A stretch of 10,142 bases of DNA from a virus: UHGV virus genome UHGV-1661176, one strand, 5' to 3'. The translations under genes were made by a program, and so were the position numbers. Position 1 is the stretch's first letter, and every line of letters starts with the position of its first letter. Positions 552 to 10,142 of this stretch are shown here, one piece after another. The notes beneath the pieces are model-generated. The model did no database searches. It saw only the letters and a list, made by a program, of their open reading frames with translations, and was not told the DNA's origin.

Positions 552-1181
552 TCATTTTCTTTTCAGCACCAGGCGTAACTGATGCGTCATGGCTTTCATC
601 ATCTGCGCCGGTAATTTTTCCCGGTACATCCGGTCCCGTTCACGTTCAAAGGTTTCTGCCAGCGGTCCGGCAGTCGTAATCTTCACCACTTCGATCGGCA
701 GACGGTGGCGTTTCGGCCTCCCTTTGCTGTCCGCGCCGGTGGATGATGATGCCCACGGCATACGCTGCATCACATGCCAGCGTCCGTTAGCCAGCCGGGT
801 GATAAAGGCGTCCGGGATCCGTCTTTTCCCCACAATCAGCACACTGCCGCCCCCTTTCAGGGCCGCACGCTGTCCTTTCTTTCTCCGTTTTCTGCGGGAA
901 AGTCGAACGCGGGCCTCCCCCAGTTTGATGGCGGGCAGGTTGCCGGTATTGATGTAAACCTTTGCGTAAACCTTATCCGGTCGTGCCGGACTTAACCGGA
1001 TGCGGGCACGGATAAGACGACGGGGAACGGCCAGCTCCCTGGCAACTGAAGAGGCCGTTTTCGCAATAATGGCCCCCGCCACTCGGTTCAGTGTCGTGGC
1101 AGAGGCCCGGGGAACGGCACGGCGATCAATTGCATCCAGATTTTTCATGGCCTGCGCCAGACCTTTTATTGCCATACTCAT
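552..1181 (-). CDS. Z: Minor tail protein Z (tail completion protein)
   Basis: 209-aa ORF with MAIKGL..., RRKRRKKGQR..LKGGGSVL.VG.RRIP.AFI..L.NGRWHVMQR and a C-terminal HQLR.V.KR, matching remembered lambda gpZ. The ATG at 1181 overlaps the upstream gene stop in an ATGA arrangement; a second ATG two codons in (MAIKGL) is the lambda-equivalent start. Confidence 0.9.
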   Translation of the reverse strand: MSMAIKGLAQAMKNLDAIDRRAVPRASATTLNRVAGAIIAKTASSVARELAVPRRLIRARIRLSPARPDKVYAKVYINTGNLPAIKLGEARVRLSRRKRRKKGQRAALKGGGSVLIVGKRRIPDAFITRLANGRWHVMQRMPWASSSTGADSKGRPKRHRLPIEVVKITTAGPLAETFERERDRMYREKLPAQMMKAMTHQLRLVLKRK

Positions 1182-1459
1182 TCCTGTTCGACAAAAATCC
1201 GGGGTTTACCGTTGTACGTGTCATAACGGGTCACCGTCAGTGTGCGCCCCGCAAACACAACAACATCATGACGGGCCGGACGGTACCGGGCTGAAAACAC
1301 CACCAGTGACAACTGGCTGCCCGAAAGCGCCCCCATCTCCGCGGACTCTTCCTCCGGCATCACGTCGTACACGACGCCGTTAATCTCCGCCTGTTTGCCC
1401 ATCACCCGAACGGTCGCCACGTCCATCCGGCAACACATTCGCGTAAACAGATCAGACAT
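1178..1459 (-). CDS. Small head-tail joining/adaptor-like protein of uncertain family, in the position lambda uses for FII (database entries for such proteins are, as I recall, sometimes labelled ATP-binding sugar transporter-like prophage protein)
   Basis: 93-aa ORF with an ATG start, overlapping the upstream ORF by 8 nt and coupled by ATGA to Z. It sits between the head genes and tail gene Z. Function is inferred from position only; I cannot confirm family membership without a search. Confidence 0.55.
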   Translation of the reverse strand: MSDLFTRMCCRMDVATVRVMGKQAEINGVVYDVMPEEESAEMGALSGSQLSLVVFSARYRPARHDVVVFAGRTLTVTRYDTYNGKPRIFVEQE

Positions 1460-1778
1460 TGATTTTTACCGCCACAGTGGCGCTGTTTGCAGGGGCATTT
1501 TCCCAGGCTACCCCCGCTGCCACCGCACCGTCTGCAGCCAGCTGCACAACCCCGTCCTTCAGATAAACCACCGCGCCGGACTGAATGTCGTCAGCAGACT
1601 GTTTGGGCAGCAGGAACACGCCTTCGGCAAAACCGTCACCGGCCTCACCGGCAGGAATATCGGTAATGGCCACGGCCACCATACTGCCGACCACCACCGC
1701 AGCACCGCTCAGGATGGTCTGATCTCCGGCATTCACCAGTTCAATGGTGGTACCGTCCTGTACAAAATTTTTCGCCAT
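1452..1778 (-). CDS. Small Gly/Ala/Val-rich head protein, probably DUF2190-like (putative decoration or cement protein)
   Basis: 108-aa ORF immediately downstream of the capsid gene; ATG at 1778 preceded by GGAGAA. The composition is low-complexity and rich in G/A/V (…GAAVVVGSMVAVAITDIPAGEAGDG…), typical of small proteins encoded next to major capsid genes. Assignment rests on position and composition. Confidence 0.5.
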   Translation of the reverse strand: MAKNFVQDGTTIELVNAGDQTILSGAAVVVGSMVAVAITDIPAGEAGDGFAEGVFLLPKQSADDIQSGAVVYLKDGVVQLAADGAVAAGVAWENAPANSATVAVKINV

Positions 1779-1823: not shown

Positions 1824-1843
1824 TAAAAAAAGCCCTTTCGGGC
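1824..1843 (-). terminator. Candidate intrinsic terminator or attenuator just after the capsid gene stop
   Basis: The minus-strand RNA would read GCCC-GAAA-GGGC (4-bp GC stem with a GNRA tetraloop) followed by UUUUUUUA, starting about 20 nt after the capsid stop at 1866. The stem is short, so termination is probably partial. Confidence 0.3.
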
Positions 1844-1865: not shown

Positions 1866-3845
1866 TCAGGCCACCGACGAACGCACCAGCCCGCGCCAGT
1901 CAAGTGGTGCCACTCCGGCATCAATACGGATTTTTGTGGCAATGCCGTCAGTGGTGAAACCTTCCTGCTGATCAATGTATGGCGTGTCCACACCATCCAG
2001 CCAGGCCACTTCAATGGTGTCAGTGCCCTGTGCCGCCGCCAGATACCAGGTTTTCGGGTCTGCCGCATCAAGACGCGCTTCTGCAATCACCTCAGCAAAG
2101 TTCTGGATAGGGTTAATGACACCGGCGTTTGCATCCGCCCCTTTCACACTGGCCGATTTGATGGTCTGGTTCGCCACCGTCTCCAGTGCCACCGGTACCA
2201 GCATAAAGGCCGGACGGATATTCAGGGCACGATCGCCTTCTTTCTGCAGGCGCATCATCTGACGGGCCGCATCCAGTCCGGAAACGGAGATCCCCCCGGT
2301 GGCAATATTTTTGTGATCGGCATGGAACAGCGCCTTACCGTCGGACAGTTTCGGGTTATCCGTCAGCACCTTGTAGACCAGGTCACCAATCGTTGCCTTC
2401 GCCGCACGCCCCATCTTCATCGGCACGTCCACCAGCATATTCAGATCATCATTGATAATGGCCTGGCGGGTGATGGAGAAAATCTCCCCGTAAGTGGCCA
2501 GTGCAATGGTCTCCTTGCGATCTGAGGTGGTGATGTATTTATACTCCGCCCCCTCACGAACCTGGCGCAGAGAACCAAAACCGCCCATCCCCACGCGATA
2601 CGCTGTTTTGAAGTCTGACAGGCGTCCCTTACGGGTCCACTTCTGGAAGGTTTCTTCTGATTCCTCCCAGCCCTGGATCAGCCCCTTGTTCGACACATCC
2701 AGCAGAATATTGCCAAAATCAGAGGTGCTGTGCGTCAGCGCCAGCCCGACCATCTGCATGGGGTTATAACTGGCCACCCCAATACCGCGCTCCGTCAGTG
2801 ACATGCGAGCCCATTCACGCAGGGTCATCCCGTTATAGGCGTTATCCTTCTCGACATTTTCAAATCCGGCACGGGCCAGCATCGCCTGGCGGATCCCGTC
2901 CCCCACAAAATTGCCGTTTCCGGCATAAATATGGGCCGGTGTATTTTTGTTGGTCGGCGAGGACTCCTTGCCCATTTCATTCAGCAGTCGTTCACGGGCC
3001 ATTTCCAGCGAACAGTCAGGATCAGCCACGCACTGTGCCTGAAGCGTCTGATAGCGACCACCGAACATGGCAAACAGATCGTTAATGCCTGACATGCGGG
3101 CTTTCTGTTCTGCCATAACGCGGGCGCGAATGGTCGCCTCATCAGACACTGCCGGTACCGGTGATGGTTCTGTTACCGCCGGTGCAGGGATTGTCACTGT
3201 GGTATCACGCGGGGCACTGTTGCGTGGCGGAGTAATCATGTTTCGGATGGATTCCGGCATCTTTTTAAATTCCTCTGTACGTTTTGACTGAATACATGCC
3301 ATTGCCTCAACAGCGGGTGTCACCTGGTCAGCAAATCCGTGTGCCAGACATTCGGCACCGGACATCCAGGTTTCATCCGCCAGCATGGCGGCAATTTCAT
3401 CGGTGGTTTTTCCGGTTTTCTGCGCATAGGCTGGCAACAGTACCGATTCGACTTTATCCAGCAAATCGGCATAACTGCGCATATCCTCAGCATCCCCGCC
3501 ACTGAATCCCCATGGCTTATGGATCATCATGAAGGCATTTTCCGGCATAATGACCGTATCACCGGCCATCGCAATCACAGATGCCATCGAGGCGGCAACG
3601 CCATCCACATACACGGTAATGGTCGCCCCCTGATTTTTCAGGGCATTAAAAATGGCGATGCCTTCAAAGACATCGCCACCCGGTGAATTGATATGGAGAT
3701 TAATGTGGGTGATATCACCCAGTGCATTCAGTTCGCTGACAAACTGCTTCGCGGTAACTCCCCAGAAACCAATCTCGTCATAAATATAAATATCCGCGTC
3801 ACCCGGCCCCCCAGCCTGCATCCTGAACCAGGATTTATTCTTCAT
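1866..3845 (-). CDS. Prohead protease (ClpP/S14-like) fused to a linker/scaffold region and a major capsid protein
   Basis: Long minus-strand ORF. The N-terminal domain has ClpP-like motifs (INSPGGDVFEGIAIFNAL, VDGVAASMASVIAMAGD with the candidate Ser, MIHKPWG with the candidate His). A Pro/Ala-rich linker and a predicted helical segment follow, then a C-terminal ~350 aa consistent with a major capsid protein. The ORF track starts at a GTG at 4037, but that would overlap the portal gene by ~200 nt; the first ATG (3845, residue 65, MKNKSWF...) overlaps the portal stop by only 11 nt and is used here. The start is uncertain. Confidence 0.8.
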   Translation of the reverse strand: MKNKSWFRMQAGGPGDADIYIYDEIGFWGVTAKQFVSELNALGDITHINLHINSPGGDVFEGIAIFNALKNQGATITVYVDGVAASMASVIAMAGDTVIMPENAFMMIHKPWGFSGGDAEDMRSYADLLDKVESVLLPAYAQKTGKTTDEIAAMLADETWMSGAECLAHGFADQVTPAVEAMACIQSKRTEEFKKMPESIRNMITPPRNSAPRDTTVTIPAPAVTEPSPVPAVSDEATIRARVMAEQKARMSGINDLFAMFGGRYQTLQAQCVADPDCSLEMARERLLNEMGKESSPTNKNTPAHIYAGNGNFVGDGIRQAMLARAGFENVEKDNAYNGMTLREWARMSLTERGIGVASYNPMQMVGLALTHSTSDFGNILLDVSNKGLIQGWEESEETFQKWTRKGRLSDFKTAYRVGMGGFGSLRQVREGAEYKYITTSDRKETIALATYGEIFSITRQAIINDDLNMLVDVPMKMGRAAKATIGDLVYKVLTDNPKLSDGKALFHADHKNIATGGISVSGLDAARQMMRLQKEGDRALNIRPAFMLVPVALETVANQTIKSASVKGADANAGVINPIQNFAEVIAEARLDAADPKTWYLAAAQGTDTIEVAWLDGVDTPYIDQQEGFTTDGIATKIRIDAGVAPLDWRGLVRSSVA

Positions 3846-5337
3846 GCTGGCTTTCGGTGTCGCGCTGATACTGTCGTTCAGTTCCGGCACTGTTGCCTCC
3901 TTTGTCGTTGACGGGGTCAGTATCAAAGACCAGCCCCAGTCTGCTGTTTTCATCAATTTCAGCCTTGCGGCGACGTTTGACCTCATCCGGATTGCGCCCA
4001 CCAGCACGCACCCAGTCAGATTCTGTCGCTGCACCACCCCGGATCTGAATTCTCCAGGCTTCAGCTTCCTTAACCGGGTCGATCCACGGCATCACCGGAC
4101 CGGAATACGTCGCGTTATATAGCGTTTTCATCTCCACATCCGCCGGAATTTTCAGCAGACCTGCCGCAACCACCATATTCAGCCATGTCCGGTACACCGG
4201 GCGGGTTACCGCGCCAATAAAACAGTCCTGCAGGATCAGGTAACCATCCGTGGACTCGACCAACTCCTGCCGCTGGGCGCTGTAGGTGCCGTTATAGTTA
4301 CGCGCCGCACTGGAAAAACTCAGACGACTGCCTGCTGCCACTGCACGCAACTGGCCGTTGCGGAAAGTTTCAAGGTTGGGATTGGGACGGTCAGATTTGA
4401 CCATGCCGATATCCTCGCCCTTGCGCAAATCGTCATAAATAATACCCGGGGTGATATGGACTTCCCGCTCGGTCTCTTTGCTCCCCGGATCTTCATAGTC
4501 CTGTCCGTCACCTTTACGGATATACAGTCCCAGCGCCGCAGCAATACGCGCCGCTGTCAGTTCCGCATCCTCATACTCCTTAAGGGCACTGATCCGCATC
4601 AGCACCCCCGATAACATGGATGAGCCTCGCGTCTGATGCAGACGACGAGTGAACTTCAGGTGGATCATTTTTCCGGCAGCGATTTCTTTCGTATCACTCT
4701 GCCGGCCGCTGACCGGATAATTTTTATAAACCAGATATTTTTTCGGTCTTCCCCACTCATCAAGAAAAACCCCCTGATTCAGTCCGGCGGATTCATCAGT
4801 GCGCATGGGAACAAAATCCGGCTCCATCGCCTCAAGCCAGAATGGCACTCCCGCCGTCCGTTCCAGACCGTTTCCCGCACCACTGACCATCTGCGCAAAC
4901 ACTTCACCATCCCGCAGCCAGGTCCGCAGCAGTAAACGTTCAAGCACAGGACGGGTATACTGCCCTGTCACATCCGGACTCACGGACCATTCAGCCCACA
5001 AACGGCGGATATCCGCAGCCAGCTCAGCCGCCATTTCCCCGTTTTTTCGTAATGGCTGAGGCTCCACAATAATTCCCCTGGCACCAATCACCCGCTCTTC
5101 CAGCTTGTCAAACACACCAATCACCAGGTCATGATTGATATCCAGAAAACGGGCCTGCTCCCGCAGGGAAACCGCACCGTATTTACTGAGCTGATCAGCA
5201 GAGCGATTTTCCCGCCGGGCTTTATGTGTCCGGGTCGGTTTCACCGCCTCATAGGCCATGATTAACGCCCTTGAACGCAGTCTGGCTGCTTTCCACCCGG
5301 GGGAAAACACGCCGATCACATCATCAATAATTGCCAT
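3835..5337 (-). CDS. Phage portal protein (lambda-family-like)
   Basis: 500-aa ORF between the gpW-like gene and the protease/capsid gene, the conserved portal position. ATG at 5337 is preceded by GAGG and overlaps the upstream stop as TAATG. Size and position are typical for portals; family assignment is from memory of lambda-family portals. Confidence 0.85.
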   Translation of the reverse strand: MAIIDDVIGVFSPGWKAARLRSRALIMAYEAVKPTRTHKARRENRSADQLSKYGAVSLREQARFLDINHDLVIGVFDKLEERVIGARGIIVEPQPLRKNGEMAAELAADIRRLWAEWSVSPDVTGQYTRPVLERLLLRTWLRDGEVFAQMVSGAGNGLERTAGVPFWLEAMEPDFVPMRTDESAGLNQGVFLDEWGRPKKYLVYKNYPVSGRQSDTKEIAAGKMIHLKFTRRLHQTRGSSMLSGVLMRISALKEYEDAELTAARIAAALGLYIRKGDGQDYEDPGSKETEREVHITPGIIYDDLRKGEDIGMVKSDRPNPNLETFRNGQLRAVAAGSRLSFSSAARNYNGTYSAQRQELVESTDGYLILQDCFIGAVTRPVYRTWLNMVVAAGLLKIPADVEMKTLYNATYSGPVMPWIDPVKEAEAWRIQIRGGAATESDWVRAGGRNPDEVKRRRKAEIDENSRLGLVFDTDPVNDKGGNSAGTERQYQRDTESQHEE

Positions 5338-5573
5338 TAAAACCTCGCCAGTTTAAATCCCGGTTTTCCCCGCCTGCGGCTCACCATCGCGGCAAGCCTG
5401 CGTTCCCACTCCTGACGTCCGGCGCGGATCTGAGAAAGGCTTTCCAGCGTCAGTTGCTGCCCGTTGAAGGTGACAGACTTTCCCTCCAGTACGGCCATTT
5501 CCGCTTCACGGTACCGCTGTATCATTTCTCTGGCTTCTTCTGTGCTCACAACCAGCCTCCTGATGTTATCCAT
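5337..5573 (-). CDS. W: gpW-like head completion / head-tail joining protein
   Basis: 78-aa ORF between terminase large subunit and portal, as in lambda (A-W-B). The C-terminal part (GKSVTFNGQQLTLESL...RRRGKPGFKL) resembles remembered lambda gpW (...KRVATVQKDGRRVEF...QRRRGPAGFYV). The start at 5573 overlaps the terminase 3' end by 28 nt; an internal ATG at 5525 is an alternative. Confidence 0.7.
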   Translation of the reverse strand: MDNIRRLVVSTEEAREMIQRYREAEMAVLEGKSVTFNGQQLTLESLSQIRAGRQEWERRLAAMVSRRRGKPGFKLARF

Positions 5574-7669
5574 GGATTATCTTCCGCACGCTCCGTCCAC
5601 AGTTTTTTCTTCCGGCGACGGCGTTTTTCTGCCCCGGCCGTCAGTTCCGGGGATACCGTTTCACCAGAACGCTCCTGCGGGAAGACGAGCCACGTTTCCC
5701 GCTGTGCCCAGTCCGGTGCGGAGGGCCAGCGGATCTTTTCGTAACCATGCAGAACGGCAAGCGCATCCGCATAAACCAGCAGGTCAAACGCTTCGTTAGC
5801 GCCCCTGCCCGGTTTTCGCCATTTTCCGTCACTGCCGCGCTCTTCATAGGTCAGCTCATCGTAAAACCACCGCCCCAGCCAGTCGGGAAAGTGGATATAG
5901 TTCGGCCCTGGTGTGTCACGCCACAGGGCATTATTTACACGATCCTTAAACGCATCCGTCTGAACCAGCCACAGCGCGACATCGCCACTGGCTCTGGCAC
6001 GGCGGGCACTTCTGCCGGTATTATCCGGGAAGGTTCGGTTAATCAGCCTGTCACGGCGAAGTCCATCCCCCTTGAACAGAAACACCCTGTTGCCCAGTCC
6101 GTCACTCCGGCAACGACGCCAGAAACGATAGGCGTTATCTGTCACCCCGGCTTCCCCTCCCGTATCCACCGCCATGGCCATCAGACGCATGCGCACATCC
6201 GGATCAGAAGCCAGCGGCCATGTTTTATGGAACACATCCGTCAGCAACAAATCCCAGTCCTCCGGATATGCCGCCGGATCAACCGGCAGACTTTCACCGT
6301 TGGGACTGCAGCGCAGTGAATGCCGGATGTTGTAGCGATCAACAATCCAGCGTTCCCCCTGCTCTCCGTATCCGGTGATCTGCACAACAAAACGGCGATT
6401 TTTACCGCCCTGTACGTCAACCGTTGCCTCAATAAAACGCACACCATCCGGCACAGATCGCCGGGGAAACGGCTCGGCACGCTGTTCAAGCAGTTCACTT
6501 TTACGCTGTTCCGTGGCTGAACGGGGCAGATAGGGTCGTCCGATATCGGTGTTCACCACCGCTTTCAGGGTCTCTTCACTGCCGGTTCGCTCATACTCTT
6601 CTTCTGCCGCCAGCAGTTTAAAAATCAGTTGTTCCCAGGTCTGAAACGCCGCAGCTGGCCCCTCCATCCAAAATGACGCAATCCGGGAGTTTCGTGGCGT
6701 TCCGGTGATACTGCCGTCCGCCGCCGCCCGTTCACCTTCACGAAGCCAGATCCCCTGGTTATTCAGTTCGCGTTTCTGCTCAGGGGCAATCAGCCCGCGA
6801 CAATGCGGACACATCAGACGGGCAGCCTGACCGGCAGCCACAAAATCCGGGTTATTCCGGTATCCGGTCATGTTATCCATCACCGGCTGAAAATATTCCC
6901 CGCAGTGCGGACACGGCCAGTACCACCGGCGGCGGTCTCCCCGGTTATACAGTGACAGGATCCCCGTTGTTGGCGGTGCCTCATGTGCGCCACCACAACG
7001 CCATTTGGTATCGGTGATATCCCGCCCCGGTGAACTCTCGACCAGGGTCATCCCCGAGGACATAAAGGTGGTGGTACGCTTTGAGGCCAGCGTGAAGGCA
7101 TCCCCTTCCCCGTCCACGTTTTCAGGGAAACGGTCATAATCCGTCAGCGCCACACGACGGTAATCCGAAGAGGAAAAGACGGTGATCGACGGCCAGCCAA
7201 TCTTCAGGAAGGAGCCGTCAAGAAACATTTTATCGTGGACGTTGTTGTCATTACGGGAAGGACTGAGGCGCTTGCTGACCTCCGGACTGTGGCGAAACGT
7301 CCTGGAAAGACGCGTTCTGGAATGCTCACGCGCCTTCGTCTCAGTCATCTGCACCACCAGCATATCCGCCGGATCACAGATGATGCCGTACACAATCCAG
7401 CCATCAATCAGCCCTTCGGTTTTCCCGGTTCGCGCAGGTCCCACAAACACCACCGCGTCATATTCACGGGCTGATAATGTATTAATGGGATCAATCATAT
7501 AGGGCGTCAGCGATGACTCCCACGGACCGGAAGTATTGGCTCCCCGTGGAACCCGCATATAACGCCTGATGGCTTCCGCTACTGGTAACCGGCTGGGTGG
7601 GCGAAACAGCGAGGCCACTTCGCGCCAGATATCGGATGCGCGGCTATGGCTCTCGTTCACCTGATTCAC
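5546..7669 (-). CDS. terL: Terminase large subunit (lambda gpA family)
   Basis: 707-aa ORF. It shares the N-terminal SLFRP motif with lambda gpA at a similar distance from the start, carries a P-loop-like GPARTGKT, and has a Cys cluster CPHCGEYF...CPHCRG resembling lambda's CPHCGEE...C.H..C. The first codon is GTG at 7669..7667, overlapping the small-subunit stop as GTGA. The first in-frame ATG lies after the conserved SLFRP motif, so the GTG start is likely real. Confidence 0.9.
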   Translation of the reverse strand: MNQVNESHSRASDIWREVASLFRPPSRLPVAEAIRRYMRVPRGANTSGPWESSLTPYMIDPINTLSAREYDAVVFVGPARTGKTEGLIDGWIVYGIICDPADMLVVQMTETKAREHSRTRLSRTFRHSPEVSKRLSPSRNDNNVHDKMFLDGSFLKIGWPSITVFSSSDYRRVALTDYDRFPENVDGEGDAFTLASKRTTTFMSSGMTLVESSPGRDITDTKWRCGGAHEAPPTTGILSLYNRGDRRRWYWPCPHCGEYFQPVMDNMTGYRNNPDFVAAGQAARLMCPHCRGLIAPEQKRELNNQGIWLREGERAAADGSITGTPRNSRIASFWMEGPAAAFQTWEQLIFKLLAAEEEYERTGSEETLKAVVNTDIGRPYLPRSATEQRKSELLEQRAEPFPRRSVPDGVRFIEATVDVQGGKNRRFVVQITGYGEQGERWIVDRYNIRHSLRCSPNGESLPVDPAAYPEDWDLLLTDVFHKTWPLASDPDVRMRLMAMAVDTGGEAGVTDNAYRFWRRCRSDGLGNRVFLFKGDGLRRDRLINRTFPDNTGRSARRARASGDVALWLVQTDAFKDRVNNALWRDTPGPNYIHFPDWLGRWFYDELTYEERGSDGKWRKPGRGANEAFDLLVYADALAVLHGYEKIRWPSAPDWAQRETWLVFPQERSGETVSPELTAGAEKRRRRKKKLWTERAEDNPWITSGGWL

Positions 7670-8142: not shown

Positions 8143-8159
8143 TTACATCCCTCCACATA

Positions 8160-8350
8160 AACCGCAGAACAGAAGTGACTCTGTTTTTTTGTAAAGAAAT
8201 GCCGCCATATAAAGATGTCGAACAAAAAACAACCACAATCATCATCTTTTTAATACTAACAGCATTAAAAACAACAAGTTACCATCATGATGATGATGAC
8301 GATAAAATCACAAAAATGCGCCTTTTTCCGCGCCCGCCCGCCCCGTGTTC
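8160..8350. other. Candidate cos site: GC-only cosN-like core (about 8328-8346) plus an AT-rich cosB-like region with ATCATC/GATGAT repeats
   Basis: Read on the minus strand, 8346..8311 is ACGGGGCGGGCGGGCGCGGAAAAAGGCGCATTTTTG, which resembles the lambda cos junction as I recall it (ACG|GGGCGGCGACCTCGCGGGTTTTCGCTATTTATG). It lies ~190 bp upstream of the small terminase start, the same geometry as lambda cosN-cosB-Nu1. The region between it and terS is strongly AT-rich and holds a 10-bp palindrome CATCATGATG (8283-8292) and ATCATCATC (8239-8247). Confidence 0.4.
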
Positions 8351-8670
8351 AGGCCCACCCCACCAGGAGGACCCGCAAAAACGATAATGGTTATCATTTG
8401 CAACAAAATCCAGTTTCTTCCACCATCGCACCGGACTGGCGACTATGAGGGGACAACACCGCGCTCCGTTAACGCGGTAAACCCCGGTGTGTATCGTTTT
8501 TGATTATCCCCGCACACTCGCGCAGAAGGAATTCCCCGTCGGGCTACGGTCATGGTTAATGCGGAAATACAGCGACGATACAGCGCATGATGTGTCAGGC
8601 TTGAATACCTTTATCCGTTAAAAGGGATATCAGTTAAGTTATCCCGTGTAGGGTATAAGCCATTATCAAA

Positions 8671-8696
8671 GCCACTCTGTAGGGAGTGGCTTTTGT
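8671..8696 (+). terminator. Plus-strand stem-loop followed by TTTTGT; possible terminator, or one half of a bidirectional terminator
   Basis: GCCACTC-TGTAGG-GAGTGGC forms a 7-bp stem (8671-8690), followed by TTTTGT. No plus-strand gene was identified upstream, so its function is uncertain. Confidence 0.3.
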
Positions 8697-8702
8697 AATG
8701 GC

Positions 8703-8730
8703 AATAAAAAAGCCCCGCGAATGCGAGGCT
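8703..8730 (-). terminator. Intrinsic terminator on the minus strand, downstream of the lysis cassette
   Basis: The minus-strand RNA would read AGCCUCGC-AUUC-GCGGGGCU (8-bp GC-rich stem with one G-U pair) followed by UUUUUUAUU. It lies ~170 nt after the Rz stop. Confidence 0.55.
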
Positions 8731-8903
8731 AAATCCAGGTATTTTTAATGACTGGCTCTTATCTCAACGCAGCCCCTTACCGCGCGCCAGATGCTCAATA
8801 TCAAGCATCAGCAATGAGATGTTTAACCATGATTCACTCCAGAAGTGAGCACCACCCTGTCTACAGAGCCAGATGTGAAGGATGATGAGTAAAATTATCG
8901 CTA

Positions 8904-9371
8904 TCATCGAAGGCATTGCGTCCTGATGTATTCCTGAAGCGTTCTCAGTGCTGTTTGGTCGCGGATAATTCCGTCCCGGATACCGAGAACGTTTCGTCCA
9001 GCAACTGGAGAGAGTTCGACGGTGGCATCATTGCCCATGCCGGAGGCGCTGGAGGTTTCGTCTGAGGATGGCACAGGGCATTTTCCTTTGACGAACACCC
9101 GACCACCATTATCAAGCTTGCGCCGAAGAGCATCATTTTTAGCTTTCGCATCAGCTAACTCCTTCGTGTATTTAGCATCGAGTGCATCAGCAGCACGCTG
9201 GCGCTGCTGCATGTCAGTAATGGTGGCGGTCGCCTGCTTCAGCTCACTGACTTTTTTATCACGCTGTTCTTTATAGGCGATGGCGTTATCACGGTAATGA
9301 TTAACCGCCCATGACTGGCAGACGATGATGCAGATAACCAGAGCGGAGATAATCGCGGTTACTCTGCTCAT
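8904..9371 (-). CDS. Rz: Spanin inner-membrane subunit Rz (i-spanin)
   Basis: The product [37 protein letters not shown]... matches remembered lambda Rz almost residue for residue at the N-terminus. ATG at 9371 overlaps the endolysin stop as ATGA, the same junction sequence (ATGAGCAGAGT) as lambda R/Rz. The GTG start at 9383 in the ORF track is rejected. Confidence 0.9.
8945..9151 (-). CDS. Rz1: Spanin outer-membrane lipoprotein Rz1 (o-spanin), nested in the +1 frame of Rz
   Basis: 68-aa ORF wholly inside Rz in another frame. ATG at 9151 is preceded by AAGGAG at 7 nt. N-terminus [21 protein letters not shown] has a lipobox (VVGC), followed by a Pro-rich KPPAPPAW motif, matching lambda Rz1 (MLKLKMML...VVGCTS...KPPPPPAW) from memory. 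Confidence 0.85.
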
Positions 9372-9865
9372 TGTTGCCCCCACAAACAGACTTCACGCTC
9401 AATCTCGCGGCGAGTCATCAGCCCTTTCCATTGCTTACCGCCAGCGTATGTCCAGCGCCGTAGCTGATCACATGCGCCTTTGATATCGCCCTGGTTTATT
9501 TTGCGAAGAAGCGTCGATGTTCTGAAATTGCCAGCGCCCACGTTGTAAACGAACGAGTAAAGAGCGCCGCGCGTTGTTTCCGGTATATCGACTTTGATGT
9601 ACGGGTTAATTTGTCTGGCGACCGTGGCAAGGTCTTTATTCAGGAGGGCTTTGCATTCTGCTTCGGTATACGTTTTACCGGGAATGATGTCTTTTCCGGT
9701 GTGTCCGTGACATACAGTCCATACGCCAACGATATCTTTGTATGGTATGTAGCTGACACCTTCCAGACCATCGTTACCACCTGGACCAGTGATGAGCACA
9801 GACGCTATGGCAACAGCCCCACCACCAATAGCAGCTGCAACAGCCTTGCGTAATGACGGCGACAT
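9368..9865 (-). CDS. R: SAR endolysin (T4-lysozyme-like muramidase with an N-terminal signal-anchor-release domain, phage 21 R21 type)
   Basis: 165-aa ORF with an ATG start overlapping the holin stop as TAATG. The N-terminal weakly hydrophobic Gly/Ala-rich segment ([20 protein letters not shown]) is typical of a SAR domain. The catalytic triad spacing E35-D44-T50 ([18 protein letters not shown]) matches R21. From memory the sequence is almost identical to phage 21 R. Confidence 0.9.
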
Positions 9866-10080
9866 TATTCACCTCTCGCAGCCTTACGCTTATCTTCTTT
9901 AATCTTGAAATAAAGATTTGTCAGATACGTCAGCAGGCCAAACAGCAGACTTCCCAGCACACCTATTGCCACCCACTGGGACGGAGAGACTTTGTCCAGC
10001 AGCTGCAGTAACCAGTATCCCGTCCCCACCGCTGACGTGGTGTATGACACACCTGTTGTGATTTTTTCCATCTGGTACAT
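9865..10080 (-). CDS. S: Pinholin (phage 21 S21 type, class II holin) with a dual-start motif
   Basis: 71 codons from ATG at 10080, preceded by GGGAGA: [71 protein letters not shown]. It has two transmembrane segments (the first SAR-like and Gly/Ser/Thr-rich) and a charged C-terminus, and closely resembles S21 from memory. Met1 and Met4 give the two starts. The GTG start at 10137 in the ORF track is rejected because it would add an unlikely Cys-rich extension. Confidence 0.85.
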
Positions 10081-10142
10081 ACCCCGTCTCCCGCAATCCG
10101 GAAGCTCACAACAATAAAAAAGACCACCGGCACACACCGATG

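Follow-up and report, generated by a model that had tools for sequence, protein, structure and literature searches.

A Gifsy-2-like protease-scaffold-capsid fusion gene of an E. coli prophage, with a candidate internal start

Introduction

Genes that join a ClpP-like prohead protease, a scaffold and a major capsid protein in one reading frame are already known. They form a curated, named family (NF045540) with a studied member in Gifsy-2, and they occur in thousands of enterobacterial prophages, including Shiga toxin (Stx)-converting phages. Effantin et al. are said to have given a structural description of Gifsy-2, with its tripartite capsid gene, in 2010 (Virology 402:355, PMID 20427067). 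Here we analyse an open reading frame (ORF) of this kind in a stretch of viral DNA of 10,142 nucleotides, UHGV-1661176, which we refer to as the window and whose positions are counted from its first letter. The fused gene itself adds nothing new; the item that goes beyond what is established is a conserved candidate internal start near the end of the protease part, from which a chain without the protease might also be made. Passages of PMC12315714 that cite Effantin 2010 describe the prohead protease and coat genes of Gifsy-2 as fused, and PMC8538268 has a passage in which Gifsy-2 is cited for a cement protein that forms trimers at the 3-fold axes.

With phage lambda the window shares a lambda-family terminase and portal gene upstream, a protease followed in frame by a scaffold (C/Nu3 in lambda) and a separate cement or decoration protein. 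The lambda protease gpC is S49-like, whereas that of the window is ClpP/S14-like and reaches only 27 bits with SppA-type models against a cutoff of 155. The capsid protein is fused in frame in the window and is the product of a separate gene, E, in lambda; the decoration gene, which in the window belongs to the DUF2190/Phage_cement_2 family, follows the capsid gene there but precedes it in lambda (D then E). Nested protease-scaffold genes are also found in the herpesviruses (UL26/UL26.5) and in phage Mu (I/Z), and in these the shared part is the scaffold only. In common with HK97, the window encodes an HK97-fold capsid protein with an N-terminal helical scaffold, whose removal by a phage protease in the procapsid is expected (PMC10275583). 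In contrast, the HK97 protease gp4 is encoded by a separate gene, is of another fold family and is recruited non-covalently, while the protease of the window lies covalently upstream of the scaffold. Given the cement protein, nothing in the window implies a cross-linked capsid.

The fused gene and its domains

One continuous ORF of 723 codons runs on the minus strand from GTG 4037 to TGA 1868-1866, as the original prediction had placed it, and the peptides AASMAS and MIHKPW, a Pro/Ala linker and the stretch ARVMAEQKARM...EMARERLLNEMGKE named there are all found in it. Residue numbers in this paper follow the 674-residue protein that begins at GTG 3890, unless the 723-residue translation is named. 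Judged from sequence comparison and structure prediction, this ORF very probably serves head assembly in a Gifsy-2-like lambdoid prophage of E. coli, with protease, linker, scaffold and HK97-fold capsid protein in one frame. In the uninterrupted ORF a ClpP-type domain at the N-terminus is joined to a capsid domain at the C-terminus, as the definition of NF045540 ('scaf_prot_MCP1') demands, and the protein scores 1003.6 bits with that model against a cutoff of 475, covering profile positions 2-651 of 652. A match to PHROG 133 spans the fusion protein from end to end, and a RefSeq protein of E. coli O157:H7 with 100% identity bears the product name 'ClpP-like prohead protease/major capsid protein fusion protein'.

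The whole window is the late region of a lambdoid prophage (lysis, packaging and head), with all genes on the minus strand. Its DNA is 100% identical to that of phage ASU11 and of many complete E. coli O157:H7 chromosomes and 97-99% identical to that of several Stx-converting phages, and a match is present in 2070 of 5426 complete E. coli genomes (about 38%). The comparison with a Gifsy-type fused gene that had been proposed gave 60% identity over 696 aligned positions, end to end, with a ClpP protease, a central helical domain and a capsid protein in a single ORF in both phages. The neighbours are the same, with terminase, W-like and portal genes upstream and cement, Z and U genes downstream, as are the position of the start (MPE...) and the presence of an internal GAGGAG- or GAGGA-ATG. 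The differences are that the window gene is from another lineage (an E. coli O157-type prophage), encodes 674 rather than 696 residues, has an unrelated linker sequence, begins with GTG where Gifsy-2 has ATG, and carries an internal Shine-Dalgarno (SD) sequence with a pairing energy of -6.0 as against -8.8 kcal/mol in Gifsy-2.

A fused frame could in principle be an artefact, in which a sequencing error, a frameshift or the decay of a prophage gene has joined two genes, and damaged single copies do exist: an IS629 insertion in VT1-Sakai, a frameshifted relative (L169) and singleton fusions to the portal gene. Such an origin for the gene of the window is so improbable that we consider it refuted, because of the comparative data. 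Many independent complete genomes, as well as an induced phage, contain the identical sequence, and no frameshift separates two genes. At least 150 full-length fusions, themselves representatives of 50%-identity clusters, came out of a search through 1.84 billion cluster representatives, down to 36% identity and all with E<1e-100; of 80 species-level genome loci, 76 have the ORF intact. Moreover, the Gifsy-2 orthologue is from a phage whose particles, according to passages in papers that cite Effantin 2010, were purified and imaged. As to the interrupted copy, IS629 splits the fusion gene of VT1-Sakai, the Stx1 prophage of the Sakai strain (L004, AP000400, 2568-3877), and the record labels the two halves 'scaffolding protein' and 'hypothetical protein'.

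The division into a ClpP-like part, a linker and scaffold part and a capsid part, which had been proposed from the letters of the DNA, agrees with the Pfam matches, the matches to ClpP structures, the AlphaFold model and NF045540. The Pfam CLP_protease match covers residues 95-240 of the 723-residue translation, and the domain passes NF045542 ('head maturation protease, ClpP-related') with 224 bits against a cutoff of 120. ClpP crystal structures were matched by sequence (phmmer), with GVAASMASVI falling on GMAASMAAVI and MIHKPW on MIHQPW, and ClpP structures in the PDB were matched by fold as well, so that the N-terminal domain has the ClpP alpha/beta fold and the structural test by which the first reading could have failed went in its favour. 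The residues that had been put forward as catalytic, Ser in AASMAS and His in MIHKPW, align with the Ser and His of ClpP. Neither S101 nor H124 varies among 54 homologues of 35-54% identity, and the same holds for the G71-G72 of an SPGG motif. A point that fits less well is the third catalytic residue: Glu173 (ADETW; window 3372-3374) aligns with the catalytic Asp of ClpP, Asp172 is adjacent, and ETW is the consensus in the family. Catalysis in the phage branch may rest on Ser-His-Glu or on a Ser-His dyad.

The models for cellular ClpP (TIGR00493 and the PRK equivalogs) gave 61-82 bits against cutoffs of 228-361, and the S49 SppA models 16-27 bits against cutoffs of 155-311. By these scores the protease is a phage branch of the ClpP fold, and neither a cellular ClpP nor a lambda gpC-type S49 enzyme. 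Stand-alone phage proteases from Staphylococcus, Paenibacillus, Mycobacterium and Gordonia are 33-49% identical to the protease domain, the N-terminal SW[FY] region included. The protease domain is thus homologous to the stand-alone ClpP-like proteases of NF045542 in HK97-like siphophages, but those proteases mostly end after about 200-250 residues, and the capsid protein is encoded there by a separate gene of another family. In actinobacteriophage clusters, 'major capsid and protease fusion' is a routine annotation.

AlphaFold gave a mean pLDDT (predicted local distance difference test) of 87.4 when supplied with 54 diverse homologues and of 35 with 39 close ones. The protease is followed by a linker of which neither the sequence nor the length is conserved among relatives, and then by three helices (251-274, 281-289 and 295-308) at pLDDT 85-97, in which R265, F273 and A298 are conserved; a scaffolding role for this segment is proposed by analogy. 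It is in this part of the protein that the definition of NF045540 expects some 200 residues of scaffold-like character. The junction between these helices and the capsid domain (residues 309-327) varies in length among relatives, and the maturation cleavage that releases the capsid protein is expected within it. The Phage_capsid_4 match extends over residues 433-720 of the 723-residue translation, and the C-terminal domain has the HK97/encapsulin fold.

NF045541 (scaf_prot_MCP2) is another curated family of fusions, and the scaffold-capsid portion (723-residue translation, residues 262-720) matches it with 418 bits, below the cutoff of 525. The N-terminal part of NF045541 does not align with the ClpP domain, and its protease may be of another type. 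Three short relatives of 616-628 residues (L139, L144 and L145) may be members of NF045541; their linkers are very short and they lack an internal start.

Where translation begins

Public annotation places the start of this same gene at four positions: 3986 (phage ASU11), 3890 (674-residue gene calls such as P0001 and P0002, 99% identical), 3845 (RefSeq, from the Prokaryotic Genome Annotation Pipeline, PGAP) and 3821 (mEp460 and VT1-Sakai). The original prediction had called the start ambiguous, and rightly so. It had the longest ORF begin with a GTG about 200 nt inside the portal gene, which agrees with GTG 4037 and an overlap of 203 nt with the 3′ end of that gene, but it took ATG 3845 for the first ATG, and in-frame ATGs also occur at 3986 and 3953. 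The absence of a clear SD at 3845 was correctly seen (the anti-SD duplex has -0.1 kcal/mol). The coupling to the portal gene deduced from that absence is weakened, because an SD-GTG 45 nt upstream, which is conserved, had been missed.

This upstream start, GTG 3890, has by far the strongest SD among the in-frame starts of the ORF, with an anti-SD pairing of -11.6 kcal/mol. AAAGGAGG-N5-GTG is retained in mEp460 (78% DNA identity) as well as in a Salmonella relative; where the window has ATG 3845, the former has TCC and the latter GCA. At the corresponding site the Pseudomonas phage BR200a (58% protein identity) reads GGAGG-N5-ATG, and its counterpart of ATG 3821 is ATT (Ile). The SD-N5-start arrangement is kept in about 20 species of Enterobacterales. 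Among the 80 species-level loci, those from Enterobacterales have their best-SD start 19-24 codons before a conserved Trp, with either GTG or ATG as its codon (the latter in L098, L099, L101, L102, L104 and L141). The annotated N-terminus of Gifsy-2, MPEV..., aligns with (V/M)PEL... of the window. Because it has the best SD, is conserved in position and matches the annotated Gifsy-2 start, we prefer GTG 3890 as most likely the start of the full-length protein, by which reckoning the RefSeq start is probably 15 codons too short.

The alternative is that translation starts at ATG 3845 or ATG 3821 by termination and reinitiation coupled to the portal gene, with the SD-GTG a by-product of portal Lys-Gly-Gly codons. 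The geometry would suit such a mechanism, as the portal stop overlaps ATG 3845 (ATGAAGAATAA) and is followed after 14 nt by ATG 3821, and PGAP and other annotators have chosen these starts. Weighing against GTG 3890 is also the fact that the majority of the distant members of the family begin 2-5 residues before SW[FY], which corresponds to the position of ATG 3845. Nevertheless, we regard a coupled start as rather unlikely. ATG 3845 is absent from the mEp460 and Salmonella relatives and ATG 3821 from the Pseudomonas relative; use of ATG 3821 would, furthermore, cut off the conserved N-terminal SW[FY] motif, and homology to the stand-alone phage ClpP proteases reaches upstream of it. The SD-N5-start holds its position across Enterobacterales with interchange of GTG and ATG. 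All four lineages compared encode the portal Gly-Gly by GGA GGC, though the surrounding portal tail differs (E. coli, Salmonella, Pseudomonas phage). Coupling to the portal gene for 3845 or 3821 is possible, but it is not needed to explain expression.

The first 49 codons of the longest ORF, which lie within the portal gene, are probably untranslated in this frame. In relatives, between 0 and 146 codons are open upstream, and as the length of this extension is not conserved we rejected the stretch up to GTG 4037 as a meaningful feature. Sixteen database proteins of 1158-1159 residues (P0071-P0086) join the portal protein to protease, scaffold and capsid. In the ten of these that were inspected the frame switches at five or more different places, each a singleton. 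Programmed frameshifting from the portal frame into the protease frame was therefore rejected, the scattered singleton switches looking like indel errors or mutations in the roughly 200 nt in which both frames are open (window 3835-4037).

A candidate internal start

At the boundary of protease and linker, the gene of the window has a second start-like site, an AGGA followed after 10 nt by the ATG of Met211 (ATG 3260). The product predicted from it is a scaffold-capsid protein of 464 residues and 50.5 kDa without the protease. Comparative sequence data lead us to lean, with some reserve, towards the view that this conserved site is used, so that the gene would yield a protease-less chain in addition to the full-length one and would amount to two nested genes. 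That an internal initiation site has been conserved by selection appears likely.

The evidence is as follows. A Met in the linker is conserved in 74% of 136 aligned distant representatives, usually after residues rich in Lys, Glu, Gly and Asp. At the DNA level we compared 79 genes from different species. The distant ones (37-46% identical) have AAGGAG or GGAGG 6-9 nt before an in-frame linker ATG, which is replaced by GTG or TTG in two. The 53 closer genes (49-77% identical), among them those of the window and of Gifsy-2, are without the linker Met and have instead a boundary Met, in the peptide ...SKRxEEFxxMPxxI[KR]N..., with AGGA or AGGAG at a fixed distance; Gifsy-2 has GAGGAG-N9-ATG at this place. 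A linker ATG with an SD of -5 kcal/mol or better is present in 90% of the 79 genes, compared with 20% of size-matched control windows in the same genes. The RNA from -25 to +20 folds more weakly at the candidate sites than at other internal ATGs (-4.3 versus -10.6 kcal/mol), and the sites are AT-rich (GC content 0.42 versus 0.55). The most specific observation concerns codon -5, a Glu, Lys or Gln codon that supplies the first G of AGGA. It ends in G in 51 of 51 genes, whereas 20 comparable conserved Glu/Lys/Gln columns, which share the same phylogeny as the test column, are 20-79% G-ending, which leaves codon -5 alone at 100% among the 21.

Several points weigh against internal initiation. The SD in the window is only moderate; the comparisons of SD frequency and RNA folding were made on related sequences with statistics that ignore kinship; Met211 lies within a conserved peptide, SKRxEEFxxMPxxIRNM, which may have been kept for reasons of protein function; and no internal start was found in four short-linker relatives (L138, L139, L144 and L145). 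Gene callers do choose this ATG once the upstream part of the gene is lost, which shows only that it has the appearance of a start. None of the records inspected annotates a nested product, and we found no literature report of internal initiation in these fusions in a coverage that did not extend to the original Gifsy-2 paper.

These points can be read as favouring a polyprotein only, in which every subunit is the full 73-kDa chain made from one start, and the AGGA-ATG at 3275-3258 is unused, being either a relic of two ancestral genes or the result of conservation at the protein level. The ORF is uninterrupted in relatives, the curated family model treats the fusion as one protein, the SD stands 10 nt from its ATG, and a T=7 shell could, on a rough estimate, hold about 415 internal copies of about 35 kDa. 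We consider this reading plausible, though a little short of an even chance. Against it stand the constraint on a synonymous site exactly at the base that creates AGGA, unique as it is among the columns compared, the retention of an SD-ATG in a linker whose sequence and length are hypervariable in other respects, and the position of the site in locally unstructured, AT-rich RNA.

Two database proteins that appear as stand-alone scaffold-capsid proteins beginning at the MP motif (P0164 and P0211) were considered as independent proof of such a start and were rejected, as they derive from a frameshifted copy (L169) and from a gene cut by the end of a contig (L168). In L169 (GCA_000755365.1, contig BBMQ01000056.1, 2440-2500) the protease and the scaffold-capsid part are in different frames; a 1-nt indel lies shortly before the conserved ...SNRIKDFHNMP motif, and the apparent two-gene arrangement is probably a frameshift.

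Neighbouring genes

The order of genes in the direction of transcription is DUF1441 protein, lambda-type large terminase gpA (5546-7669), a small W-like ORF, the portal gene and the fusion ORF, followed on its 3′ side by a 108-residue cement or decoration gene, a gene for a 93-residue protein of a Gifsy-2 family, and homologues of gpZ and gpU (coordinates of the main features are given in Table 1). The decoration gene sits at the equivalent position in Gifsy-2. The 93-residue product (window 1178-1459, minus strand) is called 'DNA breaking-rejoining protein' in RefSeq and 'ATP-binding sugar transporter from pro-phage' in Pfam (PF13856). That it is a head-tail joining protein is suggested by where its gene lies, between those for the cement protein and gpZ, by a weak Phage_attach match and by PHROG 153 ('minor tail protein'); the RefSeq and Pfam names look misleading.

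Directly 3′ of the capsid stop and before the decoration gene, the minus strand has GCCC-GAAA-GGGC followed by U7 (window 1825-1843), and after this hairpin come a second one and a GGAG SD for the decoration gene. The record of mEp460 has a rho-independent terminator annotated at the equivalent place. A simple terminator scan missed the hairpin at 1825-1843 because its stem is only 4 bp.

Upstream, three ORFs (8904-10137) look by their sequence like candidates for a holin, a lysozyme with an N-terminal hydrophobic segment and an Rz-like spanin. Between them and the DUF1441 and terminase genes lie about 750 nt (8143-8900) with a lower GC content (0.46-0.47) and no sizeable minus-strand ORF, and a cos site may be located in this gap.

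Table 1. Coordinates of the fused gene, its parts, its start sites and adjacent genes in the window, with the Gifsy-2 gene for comparison (aa, amino acids; CDS, coding sequence)
Feature	Position	Strand	Remarks
Longest ORF	1866..4037	minus	723 codons from GTG 4037; first 49 codons inside portal gene
Most likely full-length CDS	1866..3890	minus	674 aa, 73.1 kDa, predicted protease-scaffold-capsid polyprotein; start GTG 3890
Shine-Dalgarno AAAGGAGG	3896..3903	minus	5 nt upstream of GTG 3890; inside portal Lys-Gly-Gly codons (AAA GGA GGC)
ATG of RefSeq/PGAP (WP_000792357.1, 659 aa)	3843..3845	minus	overlaps last portal codons (ATGAAGAATAA); not conserved
ATG of mEp460 and VT1-Sakai records	3819..3821	minus	14 nt after portal stop; anti-SD -2.7 kcal/mol
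ClpP-fold (MEROPS S14-like) prohead protease	3318..3833	minus	residues about 20-191; Pfam CLP_protease 1.9e-36
Predicted catalytic Ser, S101 codon	3588..3590	minus	third residue, first Ser of AASMAS; on ClpP active-site Ser of GxAASM
Predicted catalytic His, H124 codon	3519..3521	minus	in MIHKPW; on His of ClpP MIHQP
Candidate nested start	3258..3275	minus	GAGGA 3275-3271, 10 nt, ATG 3260-3258 (Met211, 'KKMPES'); protease/linker boundary
Hypervariable Pro/Ala/Thr-rich linker, predicted disordered	3147..3221	minus	residues 224-248; pLDDT <50
Three-helix scaffold-like (delta-domain-like) segment	2967..3140	minus	residues 251-308
Low-confidence junction '...KESSPTNKNTPAHIYAGNGNF'	2910..2966	minus	residues 309-327; pLDDT dips to 54 at 311-320
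HK97-fold major capsid protein, Mu gpT-related family	1869..2909	minus	residues 328-674; Phage_capsid_4 9e-56
Portal gene, lambda gpB family	3835..5337	minus	Pfam Phage_portal_2 E=1.6e-80; PGAP 'phage portal protein'
Head decoration/cement gene	1452..1778	minus	108 aa; Pfam Phage_cement_2 6.6e-19; PHROG 122 'head decoration' 4e-39
Gifsy-2 tripartite capsid gene	NC_010393 22471-24561		STM1033 region; 696 aa

Discussion

For those who use the public records, the practical point of our analysis is that the four versions of the start disagree and that the RefSeq version is probably too short.

By analogy with HK97, lambda and Gifsy-2, a T=7 procapsid would form around the portal by co-assembly of the capsid domain. 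The scaffold helices would face its interior, as would the protease of full-length chains, so that the protease would be delivered by its covalent attachment to a capsid subunit. Once enclosed, it would remove the scaffold, the linker and itself, leaving a mature capsid protein of about 39 kDa whose N-terminus would lie somewhere in residues 309-327. The shell would then expand on DNA packaging and be stabilised by the downstream 108-residue cement protein. If the nested start is used, two initiation sites would set the dose of protease.

Use of the internal start would mean that only a fraction of the subunits carries the protease, the ratio of the two starts fixing the amount per procapsid, and would explain how a 1:1 fusion of protease and capsid protein avoids about 415 proteases per shell. 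Annotation pipelines would then need a nested CDS. The window would in that case resemble lambda C/Nu3, in having a probable in-frame internal start (here a candidate one) that gives the scaffold part without the protease, and would resemble UL26/UL26.5 and Mu I/Z, in that a long protease-bearing chain and a short protease-less chain share a C-terminus that drives their co-assembly. It would differ from the latter two in that the shared part includes the capsid protein. If the two nested genes are real, this family of fusions would employ the same trick as lambda and the herpesviruses, but with the capsid protein itself as the shared assembly handle.

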